From an uncultured Candidatus Saccharibacteria bacterium (GTDB lineage: Bacteria; Patescibacteriota; Minisyncoccia; Phycocordibacterales; DATDWN01), in contig CAZTQY010000002.1 in NCBI GenBank assembly GCA_964616425.1, positions 68,910 to 119,154 of the forward strand: a DNA stretch of 50,245 bases, written 5' to 3'. Below the pieces are notes generated by a model. The model ran no database searches, was not told where the DNA came from, and worked only from the letters and a program-made list of their open reading frames with translations. The position numbers were made by a program, and so were the translations under genes. How positions within the stretch are numbered: the stretch's first letter is position 1; every line of letters begins with the position of its first letter. Shown piece by piece: positions 482 to 50,245 of the stretch.

Positions 482-489
482 TACGACAA

Positions 490-515
490 AGCGGCCACGT
501 TTTTAACGGGCCGCT
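490..515. terminator. GC-rich hairpin between convergent mraY and a small minus-strand ORF
   Basis: AGCGGCC (490-496) pairs with GGCCGCT (509-515) around a T/A-rich loop. It sits 9 nt after the mraY stop and abuts the stop of the 515-736 ORF. Confidence 0.5.
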
Positions 516-736
516 CAGTTGGAGAACATCAAGTAGATGTAGATGAACGTGCATATGGCGTTCGCAATTGTCCCAATAACGACATCCAACACCAGTTTCT
601 CATCCCTTTTGTGTCCTGCTAGAGTATGAACAGTCCCAATAACTGCAGAGTTAATGCAGATATATAGGAATAGCAGGAAAGGCAAAAAGAAAGCGGAGAT
701 GAATACGATCACTATCGTATTCAACATGCTCATCAT
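515..736 (-). CDS. Small hydrophobic protein, 73 aa with two predicted TM helices (hypothetical)
   Basis: This is the internal ATG of the 515..856 ORF, preceded by GAGGTG 7 nt upstream. The longer version would overlap the ftsW start. The region is richer in G+C than its flanks, and a hairpin follows the stop. Confidence 0.45.
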   Translation of the reverse strand: MMSMLNTIVIVFISAFFLPFLLFLYICINSAVIGTVHTLAGHKRDEKLVLDVVIGTIANAICTFIYIYLMFSN

Positions 737-833
737 AATAATCACCTCTGTTTGTAACTCTATCAGAGAAAAAAGTAAGGTCAAATTATTTTTATAAGAA
801 AAAATAAGTGGTATACTGTTTGTTGTATTTACT

Positions 834-1934
834 ATGCACAAATTAAAAGTTGACATACCATTTTTAATATCTATCTTGATACTGGTTATTGCTGGCTATT
901 TAATTTTTGCATCTGCATCTCTTGGGTTGTTGTCTAAACAAGCAGCAAAATATTCTAATGTTGCGTTCAATCAAACCTTTTTCGGTTTGTTTTTAGGCTC
1001 AGTTGCATGCTTTTTTGCATCAAAGTTTGATTATAAAAATTATCGTAAATACGCATTTTATATTTTTATTGCTTCTGCTATTGCCACACTTCTTGTATTT
1101 GTGCCACATCTTGGTGTTGGGCACGGTGGAGCACAAAGGTGGATATATATTGGTCAAATGTCATTTCAGCCTTCTGAGTTGCTCAAAATAGGCTTTATAA
1201 TGTATTTTGCCGCATGGCTTTCTTCGGTAAAAGATAAAGCTCAAACATTGAAATACGGGCTACTTCCTTTTGGAGTGATTATTGGAATTGTTGGTCTAAT
1301 ATTGTTGGCACAACCTGATACCGATACATTTTTAATAATTGTTTTTTCAGGTTTGTCTATGTATTTATCTGCTGGTGGACGTTGGAGGTATATTTTTATC
1401 ATTGGAATTATTGGTGTTATCGGACTTGGTGCTCTCGCTATGACTAGACCATATGTCATGAGTCGTATAAATACGTTTGTTCATCCAGAAAAAAATGCCC
1501 AGGGAAGTGGTTACCAGATCCAACAGTCTCTTATTGCGATAGGTAGTGGAGGTATGTTTGGACGAGGCTTTGGACAAAGTATCCAAAAGTTCAATGTACT
1601 ACCAGAACCTATTGGAGACTCTATATTTGCGGTAGCAAGTGAAGAATTCGGCTTTGTTGGCGCCTTAGGAATAGTCATTTTGTTCCTTTTCTTCTCATTT
1701 AGAGGGCTTAAAATAGCCGGGCAAGTACCAGATTCATTTGGTAGACTTATGGTTGTTGGAATTGTTATACTGATTGTATCCCAGGCTTTTGTAAATATAG
1801 GCGCTATGGTAGGTGTTTTACCACTTTCGGGTATTACATTGCCATTTGTTAGCCATGGTGGAACTGCTTTATTTATGACATTGGCTGAAGTTGGGATTGT
1901 TCTAAACATATCCAAAAACAAGAAAAACAAATAA
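834..1934 (+). CDS. ftsW: SEDS-family peptidoglycan polymerase FtsW (FtsW/RodA family)
   Basis: 366 aa, about 10 TM segments, and SEDS-like motifs (GSGGMFGRGFGQS; LPFVSHGGTA). It lies between mraY and murG. Confidence 0.85.
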   Translation: MHKLKVDIPFLISILILVIAGYLIFASASLGLLSKQAAKYSNVAFNQTFFGLFLGSVACFFASKFDYKNYRKYAFYIFIASAIATLLVFVPHLGVGHGGAQRWIYIGQMSFQPSELLKIGFIMYFAAWLSSVKDKAQTLKYGLLPFGVIIGIVGLILLAQPDTDTFLIIVFSGLSMYLSAGGRWRYIFIIGIIGVIGLGALAMTRPYVMSRINTFVHPEKNAQGSGYQIQQSLIAIGSGGMFGRGFGQSIQKFNVLPEPIGDSIFAVASEEFGFVGALGIVILFLFFSFRGLKIAGQVPDSFGRLMVVGIVILIVSQAFVNIGAMVGVLPLSGITLPFVSHGGTALFMTLAEVGIVLNISKNKKNK

Positions 1935-2062
1935 AATTACATCATCTGTGTTGTTGCAATTCAATTTTGCTCATTTACCGTACTAGTTGTACGGCTCAAT
2001 CACAAAATCTCTTGCGCCTAGCATCTGATATAATTTAATTTGTTTTAAAAAAATATAAAATT

Positions 2063-3202
2063 ATGAAAATATTACTGACTGGTGGGGGAACTGGTGGACA
2101 TTTCTACCCTATAATTGCTATCGCAGAAGAGTTAAATGAGACAGCAAAGGAAAATAGGCTTTTGAAACCAGAACTATATTTTATGTCTACTGATCCATAC
2201 AACGAAACTTTGTTGTATGAGAACAATATAACTTTTGTTGGCGTTTCTGCAGGGAAAGTGAGACGTAAAATGTCTTTAGTAAATATTTTTCTTAATTTTC
2301 TTGATTTGTTCAGTACATTCTTTGGTGTTATTGGAGCAACATGGAATATGTTTAAAATATATCCTGACGTTGTCTTTGGAAAAGGTGGGTATGCAAGTTT
2401 TCCAGCTTTGTTTGCAGCGAGAATATTATTTATTCCTGTTGTGATTCACGAGTCAGACAATAAACCAGGAAAAGTTAACAAATGGGCTGGAAAGTTTGCT
2501 AGAAAGATTGCTGTTTCATACCCTGAAGCAGCTGCATATTTCAAAGCAGATAAAACTGCTTATACCGGAAACCCGATACGCAAATCAACTCTTGATCCAC
2601 TTTCAACTGACTCACATGAATTTTTTGGTTTTGATCCAAACATTCAGACTATACTTATACTCGGTGGGTCAACAGGTTCAAGGTTTATAAATGAGGCTAT
2701 TATGGATGCTTTACCAGAATTGGTAAAAAAATATCAAATAATTCATCAGGTTGGAAACAATAATGCTGGTGTAATGAAAGAGACAAGTGAAGTCGTATTA
2801 CAAGGAAGCCAGTTCAAAAATCGATACAAAATGTTTCCGTATTTAAATGTTATAACTCTACGGCGAGCATCTGGTGTTGCTAATATGGTTATATCTAGAG
2901 CTGGTTCGACTATATTTGAAATCGCTTCGTGGGAGAAGCCATCTATTATTGTCCCAATACCAGAACCAACAAGCCATGACCAGAGAACAAACGCTTATGC
3001 TTATGCGAGAACTGGTTCAGCTATAGTGATTGAGGAGAAAAATATGGCACCTGGAGTTTTGGTTTCTGAGATAGATAGAATACTTTCAAATCCAACTGAA
3101 ATCCAAAAAATGTCTGAATCAGCAAAAGCCTTTGCCAGAAGAGATTCTGCAGAACTGATAGCAAAAGAGATACTAACAATTGGCCTTGAGCATGAAAAAT
3201 AA
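2063..3202 (+). CDS. murG: UDP-GlcNAc:undecaprenyl-PP-MurNAc-pentapeptide GlcNAc transferase MurG
   Basis: N-terminal GGGTGGHFYP glycine loop, C-terminal ISRAGSTIFE, and dcw context. Confidence 0.9.
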   Translation: MKILLTGGGTGGHFYPIIAIAEELNETAKENRLLKPELYFMSTDPYNETLLYENNITFVGVSAGKVRRKMSLVNIFLNFLDLFSTFFGVIGATWNMFKIYPDVVFGKGGYASFPALFAARILFIPVVIHESDNKPGKVNKWAGKFARKIAVSYPEAAAYFKADKTAYTGNPIRKSTLDPLSTDSHEFFGFDPNIQTILILGGSTGSRFINEAIMDALPELVKKYQIIHQVGNNNAGVMKETSEVVLQGSQFKNRYKMFPYLNVITLRRASGVANMVISRAGSTIFEIASWEKPSIIVPIPEPTSHDQRTNAYAYARTGSAIVIEEKNMAPGVLVSEIDRILSNPTEIQKMSESAKAFARRDSAELIAKEILTIGLEHEK

Positions 3203-6194: not shown

Positions 6195-6220
6195 TCAACA
6201 CAATCATATTTAAAACTATA

Positions 6221-6256
6221 AAACCCGCTCCCAACGACTTGCGCTGGGGCGGGTTT
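6221..6256. terminator. Bidirectional hairpin terminator
   Basis: AAACCCGC (6221-6228) pairs with GCGGGTTT (6249-6256), and an inner CCCAxCG/CGxTGGG stem extends it. It has T runs on the plus strand and A runs upstream. It sits between convergent ORFs. Confidence 0.65.
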
Positions 6257-6627
6257 TAGAATCTGTCACGAAGGAGCATGGCAAGTACAAAGAGGCGTAG
6301 TGGTTTTTTTGACCACTCCTCGTCCGCATCTGCTGAGTCAGCCTCAAGTATCTTATCCACGAGTGCTGAATTTGATAGTTGGTTTGCAGTCTCGGTGCAG
6401 ACTTCAATGATGGTTCGAAATTCTGAGTCTCCTTTCTTGGTTGCGACTTCTTGTACCAACGGTAGAGTGACATCAACGATACGATCAGCAAGTCGTGAAG
6501 CGTGCTCTAGTTTGCGAACGTCGATTGGTGCTTCTCGACTCAGATCTTCCTTCTGGTACTGAGTCAGTTCCTGTTTTTGTTTACCGAACCAGTCTTCATA
6601 GCCGCGTAGTACGACTTTGTCTGACAA
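6256..6627 (-). CDS. Hypothetical acidic protein, 123 aa (G+C-rich cassette gene)
   Basis: TTG start preceded by AAGGAGG. G+C content is visibly higher than in neighbouring genes, and a terminator hairpin abuts the stop. I recognised no family. Confidence 0.5.
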   Translation of the reverse strand: MSDKVVLRGYEDWFGKQKQELTQYQKEDLSREAPIDVRKLEHASRLADRIVDVTLPLVQEVATKKGDSEFRTIIEVCTETANQLSNSALVDKILEADSADADEEWSKKPLRLFVLAMLLRDRF

Positions 6628-7124
6628 GCCTTCCTCCTTTCTTCTGGCAGAATTAAAGCATAAATTTAAAGTTACAGCAATTAGAAATTAAATCATATAT
6701 TAAAAAGGGCAGGGTGAGGTTGGGGAGGGACCCAACTGCAAGACTTTCTTGAGATTTTTTGAGAGCAAAGCTAATTAAAAAATCCAAAAGGTGTACAGTC
6801 CAAGTAGGGGACTTCCCTACTAAAGAACAGCAAAAATAAAGCATTAGAAAATAGGCTTAGTTGGTATATTTTGGGGTAGGTACATAGCACTAAAGAAATG
6901 TTTTGAGATGAAAATAATTGATGCGGAATAAATAATAGATAAAAATATTTATATGAATTACTAAAAATCTTAAAAGTTCTAAAATCAAAGTTCTCCCTTA
7001 GAGTACCTACTCAAAAGATATATTGTGCGACACGAATATAATCGCTCCCCCTCAGTAAATATACCTGAACAAGTACAAACTAAATTAAATAAATTATGTT
7101 AATCTTGTATTTGGAGGTGTGACT

Positions 7125-7364
7125 TTGCTCAGCATTTTGCATTCGATTTATTTGGTAGTTTCCGTGTTCGTGATTTCCGCACTTGTTTATGCGGTTGTCT
7201 GTCCACTGTTCAGTCTACGGTTCCTTGGCGACCTGCGCAGAGTCACACTGACTTCGTATCTTGTGCTTGTGCTTGGAAGGCTCATTGGCTTCCCACTTTT
7301 CTTGGTGTTGATGGTAGTTTGCAGTATTCCACCAGGTTTGTTTAGTCGACGAGGCCGTCTGTAA
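7125..7364 (+). CDS. Small polytopic membrane protein, about 79 aa (hypothetical, G+C-rich cassette gene)
   Basis: GGAGG at 7113-7117 lies 7 nt before an in-frame TTG at 7125. The GTG at 7119 used by the ORF track overlaps the SD. The sequence is hydrophobic, and a hairpin at 7388 follows. Confidence 0.45.
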   Translation: MLSILHSIYLVVSVFVISALVYAVVCPLFSLRFLGDLRRVTLTSYLVLVLGRLIGFPLFLVLMVVCSIPPGLFSRRGRL

Positions 7365-7387
7365 GCATTCTCAAGTCACACCCATCA

Positions 7388-7410
7388 AAGATCCGCCTAG
7401 CGCGGATCTT
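7388..7410 (+). terminator. Hairpin terminator
   Basis: AAGATCCGC pairs with GCGGATCTT around a 5-nt loop, 24 nt after the stop of the 7125..7364 ORF. Confidence 0.6.
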
Positions 7411-7435
7411 GTCTTTAATATTTATTTGAACATAT

Positions 7436-7461
7436 AAAAACCACCCTCACGGATGGTTTTT
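7436..7461. terminator. Hairpin with flanking A and T runs, downstream of the minus-strand lysozyme-like gene
   Basis: AAAAACCACCC ... GGATGGTTTTT with one mismatch. Confidence 0.5.
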
Positions 7462-8815: not shown

Positions 8816-9592
8816 ATGTATAAAGATATAGACCTGAGTATATTCCCTCCCGAACGAAAAGAAGAATTGGAAAAGATATTCCGCTACGCTTACTTTGAAG
8901 TATTTTTTTATAGGTCAGATATATGGAGACATTCCCACAGAGTGCTCTGGTTACTGGAGGAGATAGTTCCTACTGCTAAAAAATACATCACTTTTGATGT
9001 AGAGAAGGCTCGTACGCTTGCGCTTGTACATGATGATGCAGAGATGGTTACTGGAGATGTTCAAGCTATAGTAAAACTCAGAATGACGCCTGAAGAGTTA
9101 GAAGCATTGGGTAACCAAGAAGAAGAAGCTATCAAGAAGTTAGCCCAAAGTTATCCAAAACAAATTAACGGTTACTCTTATGAAGAATTGCTTATGCATG
9201 CAGCTCGAAAAGACTGTATTGAGGCACAGCTTGTATCATATGTAGACAAACTAGATGCATACTGTGAAAGTTTGCATGAGGTATATGCTGGAAACATTGC
9301 ACTTCTGAGGTCAGTAACTTTCAACGCCAATGCTTTACCACTTTTCCCATATAAGTTTCCGGCTTTGAAAGAGTTACTTTCGAACAAGGATTCAGTATTG
9401 ACCCACATTACTGATCAAGTTTCACCTTTTGACATACCAGCTTCAAGATTTAGTCATCTAAATCGTCCATTTGATGAAGAATCAGTAAAGATAGATGCGG
9501 ATTTTCCGTTTTATAATACTTGGAAAAAGATAGTCATCGAAAAAGGCCATATTGATTGGCTTATAAACCAAAAAGAATTCTTACCCAAGTAG
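8816..9592 (+). CDS. HD-domain phosphohydrolase, YfbR-like
   Basis: RHSHRV ... LVHDDAEMVTGDV resembles the H...HD...D pattern of YfbR-type 5'-deoxynucleotidases. TATTAT lies 6 nt before the ATG, so the transcript may be leaderless. Confidence 0.7.
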   Translation: MYKDIDLSIFPPERKEELEKIFRYAYFEVFFYRSDIWRHSHRVLWLLEEIVPTAKKYITFDVEKARTLALVHDDAEMVTGDVQAIVKLRMTPEELEALGNQEEEAIKKLAQSYPKQINGYSYEELLMHAARKDCIEAQLVSYVDKLDAYCESLHEVYAGNIALLRSVTFNANALPLFPYKFPALKELLSNKDSVLTHITDQVSPFDIPASRFSHLNRPFDEESVKIDADFPFYNTWKKIVIEKGHIDWLINQKEFLPK

Positions 9593-10672: not shown

Positions 10673-10780
10673 GGTTTTATTATATGGTTTTATGATTTTA
10701 AGTACACTTGACGGCTTGCAATATAAATCGTAATGTTTGCTTTGGAGGTCTAAATGAAGGTTCTCGTTGGCAATAACTGA

Positions 10781-10954
10781 ATGCGGGAGGTCAGCTATGC
10801 TGACGACCGGTACGTGGATGTAGTTTCAATGGATGGGACTATTTCCATCCGTGTGATCATGGAGAAAAACAATGTCGTTGTCACGGCAAGGTCTGGCACG
10901 ATGGTTGTCGATCATCAGTGCGCCCACCCCGCAGTTCGGATCGAGAAAGCTTGA
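10781..10954 (+). CDS. Possible small protein, 57 aa, preceded by an SD-led 8-codon mini-ORF (10754-10780) in the same frame
   Basis: GGAGG lies 5 nt before the ATG at 10754 (MKVLVGNN, then TGA). An ATG immediately follows that TGA and opens a 57-codon frame ending 6 nt before a strong hairpin. The region is markedly G+C-rich. It could be an RNA rather than a protein. Confidence 0.3.
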   Translation: MREVSYADDRYVDVVSMDGTISIRVIMEKNNVVVTARSGTMVVDHQCAHPAVRIEKA

Positions 10955-10959
10955 GCATC

Positions 10960-10985
10960 ACGGCCGACCAAATTTGGTCGGCCGT
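10960..10985. terminator. Perfect 10-bp GC-rich hairpin between the dnaK stop and the small plus-strand ORF
   Basis: ACGGCCGACC aaattt GGTCGGCCGT. A T-rich tail follows on the plus strand. It lies 7 nt from the dnaK stop on the minus strand. Confidence 0.65.
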
Positions 10986-10991
10986 TAATTG

Positions 10992-12899: not shown

Positions 12900-13065
12900 A
12901 TGATTGTTGGTTAATGTTACAGAGCTTTCAAATGTGGCGAACTCCTTGTTTCGACTTTGAAAATCTTCGTCACCTTATACTCGATAAGGCTTCTCTTATT
13001 TTCAAACTCTCGACTTCGGATTTCATCCAAATTATGAAAGCGTGTGGTTAAGTTAAATTGATAAA

Positions 13066-13093
13066 TTGACAAATGATTCTAAATCTGTAGTGT
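13066..13093 (+). promoter_or_regulatory. Sigma70-like promoter candidate
   Basis: TTGACA (13066-13071), 16-nt spacer, TAGTGT (13088-13093). It lies upstream of the 13115 ORF and shares the ATTGACA box with the sites at 14265 and 50076. Confidence 0.4.
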
Positions 13094-13114
13094 TTATTTT
13101 AGAGGTCAGTATAT

Positions 13115-13297: not shown

Positions 13298-13301
13298 ACT
13301 C

Positions 13302-13329
13302 GCCGAGGAAGCCAATCAAAGCCCTCGGC
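13302..13329. terminator. Hairpin terminator shared by convergent ORFs
   Basis: GCCGAGG (13302-13308) pairs with CCTCGGC (13323-13329), followed by TTTCTC. Confidence 0.55.
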
Positions 13330-39623: not shown

Positions 39624-39626
39624 AAA

Positions 39627-42575
39627 TTATTTTTTATCCCACTGATAAAGCAGAATTGAAAAATCAACTGAATCAACTTTTCCATCTTTGTTTATATCAA
39701 CTCTAGTATTTTTAAATGGAGGAGATGTTTTCCAGAATGCGAGCAAAATTGAGAAATCTACAGAGTTTACTTTTCCATCTTGATTAAAATCTGAAGTTTT
39801 TATTGCGCCAGTTACAACTGTAGCTAAAGAGTTGTTTGTGGAAGCTATTGGTGCACCTCCACCACCTCCACCGCCTCCTCCACCACCACCTGAAGTTCCA
39901 CCTCCAGTACTACTACCCGCAACTGCTGTAAAACTTCTAGAAGCTCCTGAACTTTCAGTACCGAAATACACTACTGACTTAAAGTAGTAACTACCTGGGG
40001 TAGGAACTGTCGCAGTTAGAGTTGTATTAAAATCTTCACCAGGATTTATAAATTTAGCTGCTGAACCGTAATAAACATCATTTCCTCCACCACAGGCGTT
40101 ATTTTGAGAACTCACAACACACCATTCATAGTGGTATTCATAACCAGTGAGACCTTCATTAGTGATAGTTAAATTTGCTGCAATATCAGGAACCACTAAC
40201 GGACTGACACTGTTGATTATTACTTGAGCAGGAGAACCTGTTACATCCCAATAATCATTTGTTTGGATTGTCTGACCACTTTGAACTTCAACATTTACGA
40301 CTGATTCCCACGCTCCTTGTGCTGCATTTGAAGCTACAGAGTATGTGTATTCATATACTCCAGTAGATATATTTGTCATACTGACATTCGATACAACAAC
40401 ATTTCTACTTGAATCATAAATTGTTATTGCTGGAGCTGCAAAAGGATTAGTATCTTGTCCTGAATTACTTACATATATCTTTGCTCTATAGGTATTGCCT
40501 TCAAGAATTGTTTCGGTATTTGAAAGTCTTACTGACCATGGTCCAGAGATTACTGAAATGGCTGAAGTTAATGAAGAATTCAATGAAGTAGTAGCTGTTG
40601 TTACAACGGCATTTGTATTTGAATTAATTTGTGATGTCACAGAACTTGAAGCATTTTGAACATCAGAGAGTGTCGCCAATGATCCAGTATCTAATGTTCC
40701 ACTAGTTAAAGTTCTATTATTAAAGTTCCAAATATCTGACACTGTTAACGAACCTCCGCCGATAGTTGAAGACTGAGAGTCTAGATTTATTGCGATTTGA
40801 TTACCAATTGAACCCAGAGTAGTCAAAGTAGTTGTTGAAACACCCCAAATATCAGCCACAAGTGTTCCAAATGTTGTCAGAGATCGTGAACCATATGCCC
40901 ACACATTAGCTGGGACAGACAATATTGAACTAGCTAGTTGAGATACGATAGATGATGAGGCTGTGGCAACTATGCTGTTTGTGTTGGCATTAATATTTGC
41001 AGCAAGTGATGTTGATGCGTTTAGGATGGCGCTATCTGTATTTGAGTTAACTGCTGATGTGATTCCGGATGTTGCAGAGTTTGTGTTCGCGTTAACTACA
41101 GCAGCAAGTGAAGATGTTGCTGTTTGAACATCAGATAATGTAGCTAGAGAACCTGTATCTAAGCTTGAACCAGTTAGAGTACGAGTAACTGAACTCCAGA
41201 CGTCAGTTGCTAGAGTACCGAAGGATGTGAGTGTTCGGCTACCTGATGACCAAACATTAGCTGGAATCGATGTGATTGATGATAATATCTGAGAAACAAT
41301 AGATGAAGAAGCGTTAGCTATTGATGAATCAGTATTTGCACCAACAACTGCGACAATAGACGTTGAAGCTGTATTTAATGCTGTATCAGTGTGACTATTT
41401 ACAGAAGAAGTAATTCCGCTTGTCGCTGAGTTTGTATTTGAATTAATTTGTGATGTCACAGAACTTGATGCATTTTGAACGTCAGAGAGTGTGGCTAGAG
41501 AGCCTGTATCTAGACCAGAGCCGGTAAGTGTTCTTGTAACAGAACTCCAAACATCTGTAGCCAGTGTTCCAAATGTTGTCAGAGATCGTGAACCATATGC
41601 CCACACATTAGCTGGGACAGACAATATTGAACTAGCTAGTTGAGATACGATAGATGATGAGGCTGTGGCAACTATGCTGTTTGTGTTGGCATTAATATTT
41701 GCAGCAAGTGATGTTGATGCGTTTAGGATGGCGCTATCTGTATTTGAGTTAACTGCTGATGTGATTCCGGATGTTGCAGAGTTTGTGTTCGCGTTAACTA
41801 CAGCAGCAAGTGAAGATGTTGCTGTTTGAACATCAGATAATGTAGCTAGAGAACCTGTATCTAAGCTTGAACCAGTTAGAGTACGAGTAACTGAACTCCA
41901 GACGTCAGTTGCTAATGTGCCGAAGGATGTGAGTGAACGAGTTCCAGCTGTCCAAATATCAGAAACCAAAGTTCCAAATGATGTTAATGTCCTACCAGAA
42001 TAACCCCAAAGGAGTGACGGTAACAACGTAACTATAGAGGATGATGCATTTTCAATCGAAGTATTCAAGCTAGATATACTAGTGTTTGCAGAAGAAATAG
42101 GAGCATCTAGATTTGAATTTATCTGTTGACCAACAGTTCCACTGTTATTTATTGTAGAAGTTGCAACATTCCAAACTGCAGCAGCAACTGTGGTGGTTGA
42201 TACAGACGAAGTAACAATAAAAGTTTTGTCTTGTTTTATCAAATCAACTCCTGCAGTACCACAAGACATATATGCCGGCCAAGTACCTTCTATAGGTGAA
42301 GGCGTAAAGGAATAATAGTGCCAACCGTCAGCATCAGCACTCATTGTCACTGCGTTGACTACTGTGGAGCCACTAGGATCTTTAACTGTTACCTCGCAAT
42401 CATCAGTTGAAGCAGTAAAATCATCATTATACAAATATTCCCCAAGTGTAACTGTAAAATTTGGGGCATACTGCTGATATTCAGCAAATAAATGTAATGG
42501 TATCAACAAAAGACCAAATATTAAAAATTTTACAGTCAACCCAAAAATTTTTTTACGGTCTTTTTCGATCTCCAT
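39627..42575 (-). CDS. Large secreted S/T/A/N-rich repeat protein with two beta-sandwich-like domains, a poly-Gly linker and a C-terminal type-I-like dockerin
   Basis: Sec-type signal. About five RxLT(S/T)FGTLxxDxW ... LDTGSLATLSDVQ modules. GGGTSGGGGGGGGGGG linker. Duplicated calcium-loop segments DFNQDGKVNSVDFSILL and DINKDGKVDSVDFSILL. Confidence 0.75.
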   Translation of the reverse strand: MEIEKDRKKIFGLTVKFLIFGLLLIPLHLFAEYQQYAPNFTVTLGEYLYNDDFTASTDDCEVTVKDPSGSTVVNAVTMSADADGWHYYSFTPSPIEGTWPAYMSCGTAGVDLIKQDKTFIVTSSVSTTTVAAAVWNVATSTINNSGTVGQQINSNLDAPISSANTSISSLNTSIENASSSIVTLLPSLLWGYSGRTLTSFGTLVSDIWTAGTRSLTSFGTLATDVWSSVTRTLTGSSLDTGSLATLSDVQTATSSLAAVVNANTNSATSGITSAVNSNTDSAILNASTSLAANINANTNSIVATASSSIVSQLASSILSVPANVWAYGSRSLTTFGTLATDVWSSVTRTLTGSGLDTGSLATLSDVQNASSSVTSQINSNTNSATSGITSSVNSHTDTALNTASTSIVAVVGANTDSSIANASSSIVSQILSSITSIPANVWSSGSRTLTSFGTLATDVWSSVTRTLTGSSLDTGSLATLSDVQTATSSLAAVVNANTNSATSGITSAVNSNTDSAILNASTSLAANINANTNSIVATASSSIVSQLASSILSVPANVWAYGSRSLTTFGTLVADIWGVSTTTLTTLGSIGNQIAINLDSQSSTIGGGSLTVSDIWNFNNRTLTSGTLDTGSLATLSDVQNASSSVTSQINSNTNAVVTTATTSLNSSLTSAISVISGPWSVRLSNTETILEGNTYRAKIYVSNSGQDTNPFAAPAITIYDSSRNVVVSNVSMTNISTGVYEYTYSVASNAAQGAWESVVNVEVQSGQTIQTNDYWDVTGSPAQVIINSVSPLVVPDIAANLTITNEGLTGYEYHYEWCVVSSQNNACGGGNDVYYGSAAKFINPGEDFNTTLTATVPTPGSYYFKSVVYFGTESSGASRSFTAVAGSSTGGGTSGGGGGGGGGGGGAPIASTNNSLATVVTGAIKTSDFNQDGKVNSVDFSILLAFWKTSPPFKNTRVDINKDGKVDSVDFSILLYQWDKK
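40861..41914. repeat. Two identical 352-bp direct repeats (40861-41212 and 41563-41914) offset by 702 bp (234 codons) inside the dockerin-protein gene
   Basis: I compared the two copies base by base in the listing. They first differ at 41213 versus 41915 and at 40860 versus 41562. More diverged copies of the same module flank them, for example 40618 versus 41437. Confidence 0.9.
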
Positions 42576-42609
42576 ATATACTCAATGTTCAAAAAACAAA
42601 AAAATAAAA

Positions 42610-42759
42610 CTATTTCTTTATATCATCCTTAAATGCACCCCTAAGCTGTCGTATTGCATCAGCAACACCTTTTGTTAACTCTGGAATTTTCTTTGCGCCA
42701 AACAAAAAAACAATCAACACTGCGATTATTATTATTTCTTTTGTTCCTAAATCAAACAT
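42610..42759 (-). CDS. tatA: Sec-independent translocase subunit TatA/E, 49 aa (not in the ORF track)
   Basis: My own translation: MFDLGTKEIIIIAVLIVFLFGAKKIPELTKGVADAIRQLRGAFKDDIKK. It has an N-terminal TM helix, the FG hinge and an amphipathic helix typical of TatA. Confidence 0.8.
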   Translation of the reverse strand: MFDLGTKEIIIIAVLIVFLFGAKKIPELTKGVADAIRQLRGAFKDDIKK

Positions 42760-42782
42760 ATTTTTGTTTTATTTATTATTAA

Positions 42783-42962
42783 TTACTTCTTCTTAGTGTT
42801 CACACCACTATTTTCGTCTTGAGAATCATCACTAAATGCTTTTCGTAGATTTCTTATCCCCTCGGCAATACCCTTTGTTAACTCAGGAATTTTCTTTGAA
42901 CCAAACAGGAGCACAATCACCGCTGCAATTATTATTATTTCTTTTGTTCCAAGTCCAAACAT
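42783..42962 (-). CDS. tatA: Sec-independent translocase subunit TatA/E paralog, 59 aa (not in the ORF track)
   Basis: My own translation: MFGLGTKEIIIIAAVIVLLFGSKKIPELTKGIAEGIRNLRKAFSDDSQDENSGVNTKKK. Confidence 0.8.
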   Translation of the reverse strand: MFGLGTKEIIIIAAVIVLLFGSKKIPELTKGIAEGIRNLRKAFSDDSQDENSGVNTKKK

Positions 42963-42986
42963 ATATTTGTTTTATTTATTAATTAA

Positions 42987-43721
42987 TTATACTGCTTTAA
43001 CGGATAAGCGCTCTTTGCTATATGAGTTTACTAAAATTGTTAACTCATATATTGCAACTAATGGTAGCGACATTACCACTAATGATAAACCATCAGTTGG
43101 TGGAAGTAAAGAAACGAATACAAATATAGCAACAACTGCTTGACGACGTTTTGATTTTAAGAAATCTACATTCAAAATGTTCATTTTAATCATAAAAGTT
43201 ATAACTATTGGGAACTGAAATATCACTCCGAGCAAAGCAGATGTTAAAACCATTTGTGATATAAACCTGCTAATATCCCAAAGATTTACAACGCCAAGGG
43301 ACACATTTACTTTAGCTATTATTTTTAGAGCAAAATACAAAGTTGCAAAGCCATATGAGAACCCTGTAATAAAAAGTAAGAGTCCAACAGGTAACAATTT
43401 AATAAAAAATTTCTTTTCATTAGACAAAAGGCCAGAACTTAAAAAAGAGTAAACTTGAAATACCAAAACTGGTAATGTAACAATTATTGCTGAAAACACA
43501 CCAATACTCATAGCCAAATCTACAATTTGAAATGGAGAGGTTGTTGTTATCACTACATCTTCAATTTTTAAAAATCTAATAAAAAACTTCAAAAATGGTG
43601 TAGTGAAGAAAAAACCAACACAAAAAACAATAATAAATAATATTACTAGCCTATATAATCTCATTCTTACATCTTCTAGATACTCTCCGTATTCAGTAAC
43701 GTATCTTTTTAATTCATCCAT
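42987..43721 (-). CDS. tatC: Sec-independent translocase subunit TatC
   Basis: 244 aa, six TM segments, an N-terminal ...YLEDVRMRLYRLV motif, and adjacency to two tatA genes. Confidence 0.8.
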   Translation of the reverse strand: MDELKRYVTEYGEYLEDVRMRLYRLVILFIIVFCVGFFFTTPFLKFFIRFLKIEDVVITTTSPFQIVDLAMSIGVFSAIIVTLPVLVFQVYSFLSSGLLSNEKKFFIKLLPVGLLLFITGFSYGFATLYFALKIIAKVNVSLGVVNLWDISRFISQMVLTSALLGVIFQFPIVITFMIKMNILNVDFLKSKRRQAVVAIFVFVSLLPPTDGLSLVVMSLPLVAIYELTILVNSYSKERLSVKAV

Positions 43722-43726
43722 AAAGG

Positions 43727-43912
43727 TTACTCAGACATTATGAAAATATTTGATCCACCACCGGTGACTTGCGGGATTTCTAATATAAGATTCTGACAAC
43801 CACTTGATTCAACTAAAATATCATCAAAACCACCCGTATATACAACACTTGGTAGTTCTACTAGGAAATCCTGACCTTCACCTGATTGGAAACAAATATC
43901 TTTAAATGCCAT
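43727..43912 (-). CDS. Hypothetical small protein, 61 aa
   Basis: Tightly packed in the operon, with 5-nt gaps on both sides. I recognised no family. Confidence 0.4.
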   Translation of the reverse strand: MAFKDICFQSGEGQDFLVELPSVVYTGGFDDILVESSGCQNLILEIPQVTGGGSNIFIMSE

Positions 43913-43916
43913 AAAT

Positions 43917-44588
43917 TTATACTATTTTTCTAGAAGGTTTGTTAGTTAGCATACTTATTGGCTTATCCAGTAGCACTTCTTCTGCGGGGACAACCTCTGG
44001 TACCGCAATATTTTCAGGTATAACCTCAGGAGCAACTGGTTCAATTGGGGTTTCACCTACTGGTGTTTCTTCTACCGGCAACTCTTCTACAGGAGGCTCT
44101 TCTACTGGAACTTCTTCAGGTGTTTCCTCCACCGGAACTTCTTCTTCCACCATAGGAACCTCTTCCTCAACCGAAGTTTCTTCAACAGGAGTCTCTTCTT
44201 CGGCAGGAACCTCTTCTACAGGAGATTCCATCTGACCTTCAGTCTTAGCCTGCTCATCGCTTATTACTTGGTCGAGAGATGTAGGTTCGAGAGAACCTTC
44301 ATCCATCTGAGAAAGTAATTCATTTGTCATACGAACATATGAGGCAGCCGTATGAGTTGACTCTGCGTCTATTTTTAATATTTCTTCCCCTAATTCTTTC
44401 GCGCTATTAAAACGATACACCATACCCCCATATTTTATGTATTGCGCTGCAAATGAACCTGCAACAATATCAGGATTATCTATATTACAGAACTCGATCA
44501 ACACATTGTCAGCATAATCCCCAGTGGCAGTAACCACTTTTAAATTTTCATTATCTGCAACACCTTGACCTTGTTCAATGTGAATCAT
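43917..44588 (-). CDS. Hypothetical protein with a globular N-terminal domain and an acidic Pro/Glu/Val repeat tail
   Basis: The C-terminal 90 aa consist of (E/P)VPVEE(T/P)-type repeats encoded at about 43990-44225. No signal peptide. Confidence 0.5.
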   Translation of the reverse strand: MIHIEQGQGVADNENLKVVTATGDYADNVLIEFCNIDNPDIVAGSFAAQYIKYGGMVYRFNSAKELGEEILKIDAESTHTAASYVRMTNELLSQMDEGSLEPTSLDQVISDEQAKTEGQMESPVEEVPAEEETPVEETSVEEEVPMVEEEVPVEETPEEVPVEEPPVEELPVEETPVGETPIEPVAPEVIPENIAVPEVVPAEEVLLDKPISMLTNKPSRKIV

Positions 44589-44591
44589 AAA

Positions 44592-47252
44592 TTAATATTG
44601 TATAAGCAACGCTCTAACTTTAATATCATCACCTATGTCTGTAGTTGTATATCTTATGTAAGTTGTTTCGTTAGTTTTGTCTAGAAAATCATATGTGTCC
44701 CAAGTAGATCCATCATCAGTAGACTTTTCGAATGTTCCATATGAATGGTTTGTAGTGTCGTCAGTCAAAAGTTCTCCATCTGTTTCTGCATTATAGAAAA
44801 TAACTTTCAATCTAGGCACAGTCGAACCAAAAGCAGTAGAGAATCTCCAAGCAAATATCTTGCTTGTTATCGAAGAATGCGCGACAGATGGCTGATAGTG
44901 ACTATCTGTTGTATTGTCTTCATAAGTACAACATATATTATATACACGATCAGGTAGACACAAAGCACCTATAACTCTAAATTCAATAGCAAACTGAACT
45001 TCATCTCCAGCTAACGCACTTGAGATATTCCCAGTCTGATCTACGAGTGTCCATGTTCCAGAGTTATCACTAATACCAGATGTTCGATAATATATTCTTA
45101 TTGGCTCTGTTGGTAAAGTTAAACCCCCATCTCCCAAATACCCTGCTGTATTTACAAAAACTCTGGACAACTTCACAGCATTTGTTGTGGAAAGTGCAGG
45201 TGTTATCAAACGTTGATTTACTGAACCACCTGCATATTGCCAATCCGCACCAAGAGGTACCGCATACATGATGTTTGTAGTGGAGGCAGTACCGGTACGC
45301 ACCATATAAACTAACCCAGCTTGAGACCAGACAGACAATAGAGCCCCTTGGGGACTTGGGTGTGGCACTGAATTTGAATCCGCTGTTGATTGATCCTGTT
45401 GTGCTGTGTCAGCTAGAAACATATGATCAAATTGATAAGATCCCGAAGCATCGTATTTTGTAATATATGCTCGGTGATGTGCTGTAGTTCCTCCAGCGCC
45501 AGTAGATGTAATGATTAGTCTATCTATCTGATCTGCTATTTCCACTCCGGTCATAAGTGAAGAAGCTGTATATGTTCCAGAACCACCAGTTGGAACTTCT
45601 GTCATTGAATCTGAAACCCAAGAACTACTTCCTTGGGTAATCTGAGATGTAGGTGCTCTGTGTATACGAGTAGTTGCAGCAAAGTATAAACATTCCTCCC
45701 CTGCACCAGGTCCATGAGAAAGTGTTCCAACACGACCATTATTAGTTTGAGTTACTGTTCCAGTTACTGTCTGAGTAGCAGTAGTTAATACCCAAGCAGA
45801 TGCAGCCTTACCAGCCTCTACTCCACCCAATGTACTTAAATCTGCTCTAAAATTATATTTATAAACTTGAGGGGTGGTTGCCGCTTGAAGCTCAATTATA
45901 TAAGCATACTGTGATGTCCAGCTTGTACGATCACCTAAAGCCAAACCACAAGAAATACCATTACCTCCAACAATCACATAAGCAGATCCTCCTGGCACAG
46001 TAGTTGCAGATGAAATAGTTATACCTGTAGTAGATCCGACAGCGGTAATTGTAAACCATTCAGTAATAGCCAGTGGGTTGGTAGAGCCGAAACCAATCAT
46101 ACAACCTAGGTGCGTAGCTGCAGCCCAAGAAGTACCAGCACCAGTTACAGCAGTAGTTCCAGGCACAGTTACCGTACCTGTAGAATATACTAAATCCAAA
46201 TCAACCAAACTATAAACAGCCTTAGCCTTATCAACAGTTGTTGCTGCTGCAATAGTGGTTCCACCAACAACAAAGTCATCATAAGAAACTCCATTTACCA
46301 TTGATAAGCCTCCTGCGGCAATTACGACGGATGTTGTAGACGTTAATATTTTTAAATCTTCAATAACATACGCCGTACTTGAAGCGACTGTAATATTTGC
46401 AGCAGTACCTCCAGTACCACTAGCAGTAATATTTGCTTGAATTGTTATTGAAGTATCAGAAGATACAGCGTTTACATAATACCAAGTTGATATTTGTGTA
46501 GGATCAGAACTGCCAAAACCGATACGAGAACCAATTGCTATACGATCTGAGGACCATGTAGTACCAGAACCAGTAACTGTGGCACCAGAAACTCCAACTG
46601 TACCAGTTGTATATTTATCGTACACAGCTCGCATGCCTCTTATAGTTTGGTTACCACCTCCAGTTGGATAAGTGATAGTAATAAATCCTCTCCAAGTAAA
46701 CAAAGATGTCATTCTGTCGTACAAAAAACAAGATATACGTCGAGTTGCAGCTGCTGTTGCAAGATCTGCTAAAAATACCCAATCCTTTTTAACTTCTTTG
46801 TCAATAATAAATGATGTACCACCAGCAATTGTCCCAGCAGAAACTGAAATTGACAAAGAAGTATCAGAAGAAATAGAGCTTATAGAGTACCAGGTAGTAA
46901 TATCTGCTTTACTTGTTGAACCAAAACCAATGCGTGCTCCGATTGGCACACCATCAGCAAGCCATCCTGTACCGCTACCAGTAACAGATGTAGAGGAAAC
47001 GCTGACAGTACCTGTAGTATAAAAACCTTCTTTGTTTACCCAAGAAATAACGTGAGGGTAAGTAGAGGGAATTGCCGTACCAGTTTCGTTCGGACGACCA
47101 ACTCCTATTTTTGCCGGTCCAGCAAAATTATCAGTGACGCCTGCCCCACTATATTGTTCAATCAAATCCCCCATTGTTGTTAAAGAAGGATCATACGCAT
47201 CATAATGTGTAGTAACTCCTGAAAAAATATGTTCTATTGCCCTTTTTGCCAT
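44592..47252 (-). CDS. Large T/S/G/A-rich protein with a threefold roughly 58-aa repeat and no signal peptide (hypothetical)
   Basis: 886 aa. The repeats are Y(T/S)TGTVxVxxxxVTGxGTxW...IGxxIGFGSxxxxxIxxW(Y/F)xIxxVxSxTxIxI at aa 78-136, 214-271 and 356-414 (nt 46011-47021). Confidence 0.6.
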   Translation of the reverse strand: MAKRAIEHIFSGVTTHYDAYDPSLTTMGDLIEQYSGAGVTDNFAGPAKIGVGRPNETGTAIPSTYPHVISWVNKEGFYTTGTVSVSSTSVTGSGTGWLADGVPIGARIGFGSTSKADITTWYSISSISSDTSLSISVSAGTIAGGTSFIIDKEVKKDWVFLADLATAAATRRISCFLYDRMTSLFTWRGFITITYPTGGGNQTIRGMRAVYDKYTTGTVGVSGATVTGSGTTWSSDRIAIGSRIGFGSSDPTQISTWYYVNAVSSDTSITIQANITASGTGGTAANITVASSTAYVIEDLKILTSTTSVVIAAGGLSMVNGVSYDDFVVGGTTIAAATTVDKAKAVYSLVDLDLVYSTGTVTVPGTTAVTGAGTSWAAATHLGCMIGFGSTNPLAITEWFTITAVGSTTGITISSATTVPGGSAYVIVGGNGISCGLALGDRTSWTSQYAYIIELQAATTPQVYKYNFRADLSTLGGVEAGKAASAWVLTTATQTVTGTVTQTNNGRVGTLSHGPGAGEECLYFAATTRIHRAPTSQITQGSSSWVSDSMTEVPTGGSGTYTASSLMTGVEIADQIDRLIITSTGAGGTTAHHRAYITKYDASGSYQFDHMFLADTAQQDQSTADSNSVPHPSPQGALLSVWSQAGLVYMVRTGTASTTNIMYAVPLGADWQYAGGSVNQRLITPALSTTNAVKLSRVFVNTAGYLGDGGLTLPTEPIRIYYRTSGISDNSGTWTLVDQTGNISSALAGDEVQFAIEFRVIGALCLPDRVYNICCTYEDNTTDSHYQPSVAHSSITSKIFAWRFSTAFGSTVPRLKVIFYNAETDGELLTDDTTNHSYGTFEKSTDDGSTWDTYDFLDKTNETTYIRYTTTDIGDDIKVRALLIQY

Positions 47253-47261
47253 TTGTTAAAA

Positions 47262-47888
47262 TTAAATTTCTAAATAATCAATATTAATTTGTACTGTAGT
47301 TGTTCCTGATATCACACAGTATAGCACCTCATCGACTCCACCTTCAATATAATTTGGATGATTGTTAGCACCATACAATCCTCCAGTCTTTGGTGAGACA
47401 TATTTTTCATGATCTGTGCCTCCAGATGTAAATCGAAATGAAACTGAAGTTGCATCTGCAGTTAAAGAAAACCTATTTGCATACACCCGAATTTTTTTTC
47501 CAGAAGATGGAGTAAGAACGTTGCCAGAAGATGCCAGACTTGTAGAAAGTTTTGTGACACCTTGACCAGATATGAGAGAAGCCAGAGTTTCCTCTGTAGC
47601 AGGACTAACTCTTGTATTAGAAGCATTTTTAAGACCTACAACATTAGATGTTGGAGCGTTACCTAGGACGTAAGCTTCTGTTTTCTTTGGTAAAACTTGA
47701 GAAGCAACAATACCCAAACCAGTAATTCCGGCAATTTTTAAAAATAACCTCTTATGGTTATCTACAGATTCTTTCTTGACTCTAACTTTTTTATTTGCAA
47801 TATTTGCCTTTTTATTTTCAAAAGCAAAATCGCCTAATTTTTTATTAGATACAAACCTAAAAGAATATTTAGTTGGTAAAATTTTCAT
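47262..47888 (-). CDS. Hypothetical exported or anchored protein with a Tat-like KRLFLK signal and a beta-rich C-terminal domain
   Basis: A Lys-rich 45-aa N-region is followed by KRLFLK-IAGITGLGIVASQVL-PKKTEA (nt 47673-47753). It is the first gene of the operon that also contains tatC and tatA. Confidence 0.5.
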   Translation of the reverse strand: MKILPTKYSFRFVSNKKLGDFAFENKKANIANKKVRVKKESVDNHKRLFLKIAGITGLGIVASQVLPKKTEAYVLGNAPTSNVVGLKNASNTRVSPATEETLASLISGQGVTKLSTSLASSGNVLTPSSGKKIRVYANRFSLTADATSVSFRFTSGGTDHEKYVSPKTGGLYGANNHPNYIEGGVDEVLYCVISGTTTVQINIDYLEI

Positions 47889-47990
47889 CTGCAGTAGATT
47901 TTCTTTATTATAATATTTTTTAGAAAATATAAATATGAAAAGTTATCCACATTTTTCTATAAATATCCAAAAATTATAGACTAAAGTCGT

Positions 47991-49684: not shown

Positions 49685-49718
49685 AAAAAAACCGGGCGCC
49701 TAAGCGACCGGTTTGTTT
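49685..49718. terminator. Bidirectional hairpin terminator
   Basis: AAACCGG (49689-49695) pairs with CCGGTTT (49708-49714), with flanking A and T runs. It lies between convergent mltG and a small minus-strand ORF. Confidence 0.7.
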
Positions 49719-49720
49719 TT

Positions 49721-49894
49721 TTACTGCGGAAGAAATCCAGCAGTCATCGGGAACTTGGGACTAGCCACAAGCACATTCTGAATAGACTCAAAGAACACTA
49801 GGAGGGTGTTCTCGAATCCCGAGAATATTTTCGGGGTGAGGAACTTGAGTGTTAATATTAGCAAGCCAAACCCCAAAACTCGTAAAATTTTCAT
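49721..49894 (-). CDS. Possible small hydrophobic protein, 57 aa (not in the ORF track)
   Basis: My own translation: MKILRVLGFGLLILTLKFLTPKIFSGFENTLLVFFESIQNVLVASPKFPMTAGFLPQ. It has no SD. The terminator abuts the stop. Confidence 0.3.
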   Translation of the reverse strand: MKILRVLGFGLLILTLKFLTPKIFSGFENTLLVFFESIQNVLVASPKFPMTAGFLPQ

Positions 49895-50076
49895 ACGATT
49901 ATTTTTTGAGGAAGACTGAATGTTGCACCGACATGCAACACGGTGGCTAATACCACACTGCCCCCCTCTTCGCTTTTGACTAGTTTAATCAAAAAAGAAG
50001 AAAAGAGGTTCCAGTTATAAATACAATTTCAAAGTTCTTTACTCATATATTGTATCATTTTAAAATTTTATTACCA

Positions 50077-50104
50077 TTGACATTGTTTTAAATTCTCGTA
50101 GTAT
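50077..50104 (+). promoter_or_regulatory. Sigma70-like promoter candidate
   Basis: TTGACA (50077-50082), 16-nt spacer, TAGTAT (50099-50104). It lies upstream of the KGG-protein gene. Confidence 0.45.
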
Positions 50105-50130
50105 TCAAAACTGGTTTCAGGCCCAAGGAG

Positions 50131-50245
50131 GGGCCTATGAATGGAAGATCGCACAAACATGCGCGGATTCGCTTCGATGTCGCCGGAGAAGCAGCGTGAG
50201 ATCGCCAGCAAGGGTGGGCGTGCCGCTCACGAGCAGGGCAAGGCC
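50131..50245 (+). CDS. KGG-repeat general-stress-type protein (YciG-like), 5' part; continues beyond the window
   Basis: AAGGAGGGG lies 7 nt before the ATG. The translation is MEDRTNMRGFASMSPEKQREIASKGGRAAHEQGKA, which fits the xxGFAxMxxEKxREIASKGG pattern of KGG-motif stress proteins. It is the most G+C-rich stretch in the window. Confidence 0.6.

Follow-up and report, generated by a model that had tools for sequence, protein, structure and literature searches.

The 50,245-nt stretch of contig CAZTQY010000002.1 analyzed here (the window) has a G+C content of 36.5% and is part of the core chromosome of a Parcubacteria/Zambryskibacteria-like member of the Minisyncoccia (Patescibacteria). Pfam matches identify mraY, ftsW, murG, gltX, an M23 peptidase gene, dnaJ, dnaK, grpE, rpsI, and alaS, and the window further contains UDG, mnmA, YceG, leuS, and ychF genes together with genes for large surface proteins and TatA/TatC. 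Between these genes lie ten short units, referred to as cassettes c1 to c10, each with a single small open reading frame (ORF). The subject of this report is how the cassettes differ from the genes around them in composition and expression signals, and how they are distributed among related genomes.

Taxonomic placement was based on GrpE-centred loci of GTDB species representatives. The best relatives of the window GrpE (13638-14222, minus strand) are metagenome-assembled genomes (MAGs) labelled Parcubacteria, Zambryskibacteria, Paceibacterota, and Minisyncoccia, the closest being "Parcubacteria bacterium C7867-006" with 94% GrpE identity. Loci from relatives carry labels of the form L001, L002, and so on. 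L001, L091, and L092 represent the C7867-006 lineage, whose core (L001, L091) is about 75-88% identical to the window in nucleotide sequence, L087-L090 belong to the same species as the window (97% nucleotide identity), and L101-L103 are sister-strain assemblies.

Composition and expression signals of cassettes and core genes

All ten units were recovered at the places where a sequence-only reading of this DNA had put them, give or take a few tens of bases. That reading had judged them by eye to be richer in G+C than their surroundings, and the measured values agree, with a G+C content of 0.41-0.54 versus 0.365 for the window and 0.31-0.44 for the 500-bp flanks. For coding sequences we compared a curated set of 10 cassette ORFs with 48 core ORFs, 15 of which are small. 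G+C content at third codon positions (GC3) is 0.36-0.60 in the cassette ORFs (median 0.47) versus 0.14-0.36 in the core ORFs (median 0.25; Mann-Whitney U test, p = 5e-7), and the excess is also found in comparison with the 15 small core ORFs (p = 2e-5). Synonymous codon usage differs as well, the summed chi2 being 474 (41 degrees of freedom) versus 48±18 for equally sized sets of core genes drawn at random.

The two classes also differ in what precedes the start codon. A Shine-Dalgarno (SD) sequence was scored wherever at least 5 nt of AAGGAGGTGA, with GGAG or GAGG included, were present between -4 and -20. SD sequences had been reported ahead of eight cassette ORFs and at no core start inspected, and this contrast sharpened on counting: 9 of the 10 cassettes have one versus 0 of the 48 core genes (Fisher's exact test, p = 9e-10). 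Even an SD 4-mer is found in just 1 core gene, and core start regions consist of 45% A, 35% T, and 10% G. The same division runs through the approximately 23 closest loci, in which SD-bearing ORFs are few, about 90 aa long, and have a GC3 of 0.45-0.64 versus 0.25-0.33 in SD-less ORFs. The GGAGG core is kept in orthologue pairs of c4, c6, c7, c8, and c10 despite a synonymous divergence (dS) of at least 0.6. Conservation in these five pairs argues that the SDs pair with the ribosome, and we infer that the cassette SDs would be used in translation.

Signals at the two ends of the cassettes are uneven in strength. A TTGACA-17-TATAAT promoter matching at 12 of 12 positions occurs once in the 50-kb window, at c6, and the promoter of c10, with 10 of 12, is the best site in its third of the window. 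Three units had been credited with an ATTGACA -35 box and a good -10; this stands for c6 and c10 and fails for c5, whose -10 matches at only 3 of 6 positions. Promoters of c2, c3, c5, and c7 are weak or were not identified. The claim that nearly all units end in a strong hairpin was borne out by folding, 3' hairpins being significant in 8 of the 9 cassettes folded (z = -2.7 to -6.0), and c3, c4, c6, and c7 have the strongest terminator-like sites.

Ratios of nonsynonymous to synonymous divergence (dN/dS) are 0.07-0.17 for c4, c6, c7, and c8, and by this measure of selection on their sequences these four are protein-coding. The cassette products comprise membrane or hydrophobic peptides (c1, c3, c9), small soluble orphans (c2, c4, c5, c6), an XRE regulator (c7) that has no partner gene, a probable LAS/M15-like peptidase (c8), and a KGG protein (c10). 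The XRE, KGG, and M15-like assignments had been made from the letters alone and agree with the HTH_3 match of c7, the KGG repeat of c10, and the predicted fold of c8.

Core genes appear to be expressed by a different set of signals. We counted hexamers matching TATAAT at 5 or more of 6 positions by their distance to ATG, in the window and in 80 related loci. A -10 element ends exactly 6 nt before ATG in 6 of 47 window genes (background about 1), and 10 of the 47 have one at 6-9 nt. The peak at 6 nt recurs in close relatives (36 of 278 genes, background about 4 per position) and in more distant ones (85 of 668, background about 8 per position), and it is not found among SD ORFs. In addition to dnaJ (Table 1), the genes starting at 5988, 8816, 21887, 25769, and 29441 have the element at 6 nt, and those at 20628, 36280 (ychF), 44588, and 14222 (grpE) have it at 7-9 nt. 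A -10 peak in this position would place the transcription start site at the A of ATG and is therefore a signature of leaderless mRNA. Genes internal to operons, namely rpsM, rpsK, rpsD, and rpoA, start after A-rich spacers. Our literature search found no description of leaderless dominance or of SD-led cassettes in Patescibacteria.

Distribution of the cassettes among relatives

The syntenic comparison proposed along with the sequence-only reading yielded a range of outcomes. Cassettes c3, c5, and c7 are clean insertions, occupying 386, 439, and 500 bp in the window where L001 (c3, c5) and L091 (c7) have 40, 44, and 68 bp, respectively, and these empty-site comparisons revealed no duplicated bases. 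Cassette c2 is highly diverged; its slot is 2.2 kb long in L001 and holds a 34%-identical N-terminal homologue (SD, GC3 0.64) and a Fic-motif gene. In the c6 slot, L001 has an unrelated 64-aa ORF with its own GGGAGG, set between the same -35 region and the same terminator, and the c9 slot of L091 has a different, GC-rich gene of 87 aa with GAGGAGG. By comparison with L001 and L091, c4, c8, and c10 keep their positions, along with their promoter, SD, and terminator.

Cassette c6 gives the clearest picture of movement. Nine homologues at 69-79% identity were found, the one that is named coming from a Minisyncoccia MAG, and they occur in at least four genomic contexts among related Minisyncoccia: between grpE and rpsI (L083-L086), next to a ligA-gatCA string (L081, L082), beside a GIY-YIG gene (L094-L096), and beside an rve transposase gene (L097) that lies outside the conserved unit. 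Five contexts were read, and in four of them the match to the window DNA begins at the -35 hexamer or slightly upstream of it (14257-14265). The L081 copy is matched by blastn from the leader onward (14306), yet it too has TTGACA-17-TATAAT in register. At the other end, homology in loci of other context stops just past the T-run of the terminator (14754-14766). Inside the unit, both promoter hexamers (-35 and -10) are conserved but their spacer varies freely, the ORF has a dN/dS of 0.07-0.16 at a dS of about 1, and the leader of about 55 nt is nearly invariant. The G+C content of c6 is 0.49-0.53 in hosts of 0.36-0.48. In L081, a relative of 46-50% G+C whose core GC3 is 0.5-0.58, the composition of c6 is ordinary, and it is still an SD gene among an SD-less core. 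Together with the clean insertions of c3, c5, and c7, these contexts uphold the earlier view of the units as accessory, self-contained, and written in a different expression grammar.

Gain and replacement concentrate in particular slots. In 73 loci we counted 102 small SD ORFs, of which 46 are no more than 1.5 kb from grpE, in a region that makes up 18% of the sequence (p = 3e-10), and these 46 fall into 41 sequence clusters. The grpE/dnaK intergenic slots are therefore hot spots for diverse SD-led genes. An HD-domain (YfbR-like) gene at 8816-9592 is likewise absent from L001, where its flanks abut within 3 bp, yet its GC3 is 0.32, it has no SD, and a TGgTATTAT box lies 6 nt upstream of its ATG; it is thus an accessory gene in the core grammar. 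Accessory status alone therefore does not give the cassette signature. A second HD-domain (YfbR-like) gene is found at 24318-24929.

Several cassettes are also present in further assemblies. Cassette c7 is present in the sister strains L087 and L088, and L093 has it in the same slot at 84% amino acid identity. Orthologues of c8 follow ychF in L087-L090 (96%) and in L091/L092 (60%). Assemblies from Logan, JGI, and ENA (L098-L100) have c5 at 98% or higher amino acid identity in a dnaK|c5|98-aa|grpE slot, the 352-bp c1 slot is present in L101-L103, the exact c2 protein is found on three contigs, and a 65-aa orthologue of c10 lies in the same place in L091/L092 with promoter and SD-in-hairpin conserved.

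The individual cassettes and their surroundings

Table 1. Window coordinates of the ten cassettes with their reading frames and expression signals, and of the dnaJ start.
Feature	Positions	Strand	Reading frame and product	Promoter, leader, and SD	3' end
c1	485-790	-	Between mraY and ftsW; ORF 515-736, 73-aa hydrophobic peptide	Promoter-like TTGACC-16-TAGAGT 784-757; SD GAGGTGAT 742-749	Terminator hairpin 487-514 (z = -4.75)
c2	6216-6645	-	TTG start; ORF 6256-6627, 123 aa	SD AAGGAGG 6633-6639	Bidirectional hairpin terminator 6214-6253 (z = -6.0)
c3	7050-7436	+	ORF 7125 (or 7119)-7364, ~80-aa membrane peptide	SD GGAGGTG 7113-7119	Terminator 7388-7410 (z = -4.3)
c4	10708-10990	+	Between dnaJ and dnaK, opposite strand; ATG 10754, ORF end 10954	Promoter TTGACG (10708)-17-TAATGT; SD GGAGGT 10744	Terminator 10960-10985
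c5	13066-13335	+	ORF 13115-13297, 60-aa basic protein	Perfect -35 TTGACA 13066-13071; SD GAGGT	Terminator 13302-13329 (z = -3.7)
c6	14265-14758	+	ORF 14358-14696, 112 aa, beta-rich	Perfect TTGACA-17-TATAAT 14265-14293; ~55-nt leader with hairpin; SD GAGGTG 14348-14353	Double-hairpin terminator 14702-14750
c7	34700-35187	-	GTG start; ORF 34750-35139, 129 aa, XRE-type helix-turn-helix (Pfam HTH_3)	Perfect 13+13 palindrome 35154-35181, ATTAAGTTATCAC-TT-GTGATAACTTAAT; SD GAGGAGGT 35145-35152	Terminator 34705-34736
c8	36324-37030	+	ORF 36373-37005, 210 aa, DUF5715	Promoter-like CTTACA-17-TAAAAT (with TG) 36324-36352; SD AAGGAGG 36361-36367	Terminator 36989-37026
c9	49685-49900	-	ORF 49721-49894, 57 aa, hydrophobic	No SD
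c10	50077-50245	+	ORF from 50137, runs off the window; KGG stress-protein repeat	Promoter TTGACA-16-TAGTAT 50077-50104; SD AAGGAGG in loop of GGCCC/GGGCC hairpin
dnaJ start	10660-10700	-	ATG at 10672	TATAAT ends 6 nt before ATG

The coordinates of the c1 ORF in Table 1 are corrected ones, and a Pfam family search with its protein returned no match. A 15-nt inverted repeat (87% complementary) flanks c1 at 452-466 and 737-751; the end of mraY (ACAGGAGTGATTATT) is complementary to the SD region of c1 (AATAATCACCTCTGT), which may be chance. The c2 family comprises 7 representative clusters among 1.84 billion proteins. Its slot is a variable region with different cargo in the closest relative, where one gene encodes a protein of 398 aa with the Fic-type motif HPFDNGNGR and another a protein of 131 aa (L001 positions 15922-17118 and 17283-17678, both on the minus strand).

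In c4, an in-frame TGA (10778-10780) follows codon 8 and is itself directly followed by an ATG at 10781 (...AAC TGA ATG CGG...). The orthologue in L001 is uninterrupted (67 aa; ...AAC CAC ATG AGG...) with 68-70% amino acid identity, and promoter, SD, and terminator are all conserved there. The window copy could be a recent pseudogene or a gene split in two with coupled re-initiation, unless the TGA is a sequencing error. The c5 protein had no match in JGI metagenome contigs, and a link to a family of small proteins from the same slot in L014, L016, and L019 was rejected at a profile score of 3 bits. About 170 bp upstream of dnaK (12900-13072) are conserved in L002 and L011 and replaced in L001; this segment may be a long dnaK leader or a regulatory region, and no CIRCE-like inverted repeat was noticed in it.

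The structure model of c6 has a mean predicted local distance difference test score (pLDDT) of 80, and its comparison with the PDB gave no significant match and no known fold. The leader of c6 may be a cis-regulatory RNA. Its first hairpin has one compensatory change (UA to CG), and in a test for a structured element or thermosensor this was the single compensatory pair, and the fold was no more stable than shuffled sequences (z = -0.8, not significant). Alternative folds of 14300-14357 pair the SD and the start-codon region (compare L081-L083, L094, and L097), and the invariant leader had no match in JGI metagenome contigs. Downstream of c6, about 280 GC-rich bp between its terminator and rpsI (14760-15043) are shared with L001 and have no convincing ORF. 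They hold a direct repeat, CCACAGGAGTACTTC, in two copies. They also contain a 44-nt element (...TTGTTTTATGAATAAAACAAAGTCGC...; 14849-14892) that recurs in inverted orientation, at 91% identity, where the C7867-006 lineage has its empty c7 slot (L091 8761-8804 and L092 185-207, both minus strand). It could be what remains of a cassette, or else a binding site or a small intergenic repeat.

The palindrome of c7 lies directly upstream of its SD, 1-2 nt past the ychF stop, and is only partly conserved in L093; it is probably an operator for autoregulation. The c7 family comprises 2 clusters. A phage or defence origin was rejected: scans of PHROGs and PADLOC returned a generic helix-turn-helix match for c7 only, and scans of IMG/VR with c2, c6, and c8 found no relatives.

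A sequence search of the PDB with c8 found no match, and Pfam assigns it DUF5715 only. Its AlphaFold2 model (pLDDT 90) is closest in Foldseek to LdcB (4jid, 4mph; probability 1.0, E = 3e-4, template-modelling score 0.42-0.51), followed by MepA and VanYB. The zinc-binding pattern H-x6-D...H is represented by H145, D152, and H191, all invariant in 28 sequences, and by eye the protein has a hydrophobic N-terminal helix that is likely a signal peptide. The model therefore points to what is probably a secreted VanY/LdcB-like LAS/M15-like peptidase. The terminator of c8 has a perfect 10-bp stem followed by TTTTT, a stem that the fold window cut.

Next to c9, a bidirectional hairpin at 49690-49716 (z = -2.7) may belong to the convergent YceG-like gene. 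The SD hairpin of c10 reads GGCCC-AAGGAG-GGGCC in the window (50118-50136) and GGCC-TTAGGAG-GGCC in L091 (approximately 13780-13800). Beyond c8, the block 37031-47900 encodes large surface-type proteins of 588 aa (sub-threshold Big_13), 293 aa, and 982 aa, the last with a dockerin domain, a sub-threshold MG2 match, and internal repeats of about 700 bp (e.g., 41017/41719). Tandem TatA genes (42610-42759 and 42783-42962) and then TatC follow the surface-protein genes. The block is missing from the same position in L091 and is rearranged or shortened in the 97%-identical L087.

Origin and nature of the cassettes

What kind of sequence the cassettes are has to be settled before their origin. The sequence-only reading had offered structured RNA as an alternative, and it had noted that the islands might be assembly chimeras. 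In favor of these readings, G+C islands in AT-rich genomes are often RNAs, c9 has neither SD nor homologue, and 14760-15043 is GC-rich without a convincing ORF. A scan for tRNA and tmRNA found none in the window, and Rfam found no family in the window at gathering threshold and none in any cassette at E<=1. Because of this lack of Rfam matches and of dN/dS values of 0.07-0.17, the RNA reading is rejected for the units tested; full-length ORFs are conserved, and the protein models of c6 and c8 are confident. The chimera reading is rejected for c1, c2, c4-c8, and c10 because their junctions or exact products recur in independent assemblies from NCBI, Logan, JGI, and ENA (c6 in L083-L086, c7/c8 in L087-L090, c7 in L093, and c5 in L098-L100, for example), which cover all cassettes except c3 and c9. 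For c4-c8 both readings are refuted, and the chance that they explain some or all of the islands is now very slim.

A further suggestion was that the cassettes came from a host or partner organism of higher G+C content. In its full form this would be a recent import, not yet ameliorated, from an SD-using organism outside the Patescibacteria. The clearly atypical G+C content, GC3, and codon usage are what such an origin predicts. The c8 family (DUF5715) has members about 41-48% identical on multi-megabase contigs of other bacteria, one named Acidisarcina, and KGG proteins are widespread outside Patescibacteria. An old import is possible for c8 and, given how widely its family is distributed, may be plausible for the KGG gene. 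In our searches the c8 family is the only one to reach other phyla, at no more than 48% identity, and the closest homologues of c2, c5, c6, c7, and c8 are all on Patescibacteria-type contigs. Close homologues of c2, c5, c6, and c7 come from related Patescibacteria or from short contigs with the same synteny, and the best matches of c8 are a group of short proteins mostly on small contigs, one being Parcubacteria bacterium C7867-006. A cassette G+C content of about 0.5 is also unlike that of a high-GC donor, and c6 keeps its SD in the relative where its composition matches the core.

The behavior of GC3 over time also weighs against recent import. Between the window and L001, c4 has a dN/dS of 0.17 at a dS of 1.0 and a GC3 of 0.60 versus 0.56; between the window and the L091 lineage, c8 has a dN/dS of 0.17 at a dS of 1.9 and a GC3 of 0.43 in both. 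Neighbouring core genes in these comparisons have a GC3 of 0.25-0.28 at a dS of 0.8-2.3. A two-rate model gives decay factors of 0.26 (c4) and 0.08 (c8) per lineage and would need an ancestral GC3 above 1. GC3 has been stable in the two lineages over a dS of 1-1.9, a stability that neutral amelioration cannot explain. Synonymous divergence of c7 is below that of its flanks (dS 0.61, proportion of synonymous differences [pS] 0.42 versus about 0.8, the flanks being saturated), and in a close pair c8 has a dS of 0.08 versus 0.30 for ychF. These low values reflect either constrained synonymous sites or exchange between related lineages through conserved flanks, and neither is compatible with a single recent import from a high-GC host. 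Such an import is thus very unlikely to be the source of the cassettes. The pattern suggests that selection, or else ongoing exchange among relatives of higher G+C content, keeps G+C elevated, and that the excess is not the fading mark of a recent import.

The cassettes could also be native. On this account they are ancestral small genes that were never mobile, their patchiness is due to differential loss and fast evolution, and SDs and high GC3 were selected because leadered mRNAs need SD-dependent, perhaps stress-specific, translation. Conservation of the SD cores in orthologues would be expected, as would the clustering of cassettes at the dnaK/grpE/dnaJ heat-shock genes and the presence of a KGG stress protein among the products, and the near-invariant leader of c6 could sequester its SD. 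It fits equally that c4, c8, and c10 occupy the same slots in the C7867-006 lineage, with a dS like that of the flanks and an unchanged GC3. What it does not accommodate is c6 in at least four unrelated contexts, one of them beside a transposase gene, or an L001 c6 slot in which an unrelated ORF is combined with the same -35 box and terminator. The pS of 0.42 for c7 versus about 0.8 in its flanks and the 41 unrelated families among 46 slot ORFs are further points against it. We consider a native vertical regulon unlikely on balance.

We therefore favor, as the probable explanation, that the cassettes are chromosomal, moron-like, SD-led accessory modules in a Parcubacteria genome whose core is leaderless or SD-independent. 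Housekeeping genes would be expressed without SD, the first genes of operons being leaderless and internal ones starting after A/T-rich, G-poor spacers. Nine or ten monocistronic modules would sit in intergenic slots, each with a sigma-70-type promoter, a true 5' leader whose canonical GGAGG precedes the start by 5-10 nt, and a small ORF followed by an intrinsic terminator. Since such a module carries all its own expression signals, it would work wherever it is inserted. The modules would form a flexible gene pool restricted to this lineage. They would occupy fixed slots, among which those beside grpE/dnaK are a hot spot, and between genomes with core genes about 77% identical in DNA they would be present, absent, strongly diverged, or swapped for unrelated ORFs. 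At least one module, c6, would move as a whole promoter-to-terminator unit between unrelated chromosomal contexts. Gain and loss could proceed by homologous recombination through conserved flanking core genes, with occasional illegitimate insertion.

Several observations weigh against this explanation. The syntenic cassettes with a dS like that of their flanks (c4, c8, and c10) could be simply vertical, and no recombinase, terminal inverted repeat, target-site duplication, or att-like site was found flanking any cassette. Leaderless initiation of the core is predicted from the position of a motif, and the genes were called with a simple longest-ORF heuristic. The coding status of c1 has no comparative support, and c9, the weakest unit and the one without SD, may not be a gene. 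If the lineage is among the Parcubacteria that have no anti-SD, the SDs cannot work as proposed; rRNA is absent from the window and from all relatives' loci obtained.

Other bacteria combine SD-poor genomes with a few SD-led genes. SD-poor Bacteroidia and Flavobacteria reportedly have a minority of SD-led genes (Baez 2019, Jha 2021, McNutt 2023); rpsU is one of the SD genes of Bacteroidia, where the anti-SD is sequestered. The window resembles them in that nearly all genes have no SD and have A-rich, G-poor starts, with few strong, conserved SDs. It differs in having its SDs on accessory cassettes, in the leaderless look of many core genes, and in promoters of the TTGACA/TATAAT type. Leaderless-rich bacteria include Actinobacteria and Deinococcus, for example M. 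tuberculosis (Cortes 2013, cited in PMC12641261). They share with the window a -10 at a fixed short distance from the start codon and the coexistence of leaderless and SD-led genes, whereas here the pattern is predicted from the DNA of AT-rich Patescibacteria and the SD class is a compositionally distinct mobile set. In the same broad group as the window, about half of Parcubacteria have no CCUCCU anti-SD motif (Tsurumaki et al. 2022, PMC9297842). Anti-SD loss fits an SD-independent core translatome, whereas SD-bearing accessory cassettes are not described there.

Among mobile units, the closest likeness is to phage morons (Hendrix/Juhala concept; Cumby, Davidson & Maxwell 2012, PMC3594210). 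Like morons, the cassettes are independent units of one or few genes with their own promoter and terminator, are inserted between genes that are adjacent in related genomes (c3, c5, and c7), and have atypical nucleotide composition, horizontal spread, and small accessory functions. They share three of the four defining features of morons. The difference is one of location, the cassettes lying in the core chromosome among mraY, ftsW, dnaK, grpE, rpsI, ychF, and leuS and not in a phage or prophage; they also differ from their host in the mode of translation initiation, which is outside the moron definition. Integron cassettes are likewise small, hold one gene each, vary in function, are exchanged between genomes, and have an imperfect 3' hairpin. 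They are, however, promoterless, arrayed by intI/attI, and end in attC, whereas the window cassettes carry promoters, lie at scattered sites across 50 kb, and end in mutually unrelated hairpins with T-runs. No integrase domain was found among the window proteins scanned, a scan that did not take in every ORF. Two further candidates were rejected: an insertion sequence or miniature inverted-repeat element, as no terminal inverted repeats or target-site duplications bracket any cassette, and a type II toxin-antitoxin module, as each cassette has a single ORF and PADLOC gave only the generic helix-turn-helix match.

A bolder form of the moron-like explanation would give the Parcubacteria of this clade two parallel translation regimes, a leaderless/SD-independent core and a circulating, SD-led, G+C-richer pool whose composition is actively maintained. 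We hold this to be distinctly improbable. If true, it would mean a dedicated selective or mechanistic link among SD initiation, mRNA composition, and mobility, and the pool could be a condition-specific (for example, stress) translational regulon. If the lineage has no anti-SD, there could be some novel way of reading GGAGG.

Patescibacteria (the candidate phyla radiation) account for much of bacterial diversity; their ribosomes are reduced, and hardly any have been cultured. Two classes of start site would mean that annotation pipelines and gene callers with one model of the ribosome-binding site will mis-start one of the two, and a module of the c6 type would serve directly as an expression cassette in future genetic work on these bacteria. 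Self-sufficient accessory genes would mark the flexible genome and its insertion hot spots. The moron-like explanation also predicts widespread leaderless initiation in the clade and a ribosome that still reads SDs, which would bear on the anti-SD loss reported in many Parcubacteria.

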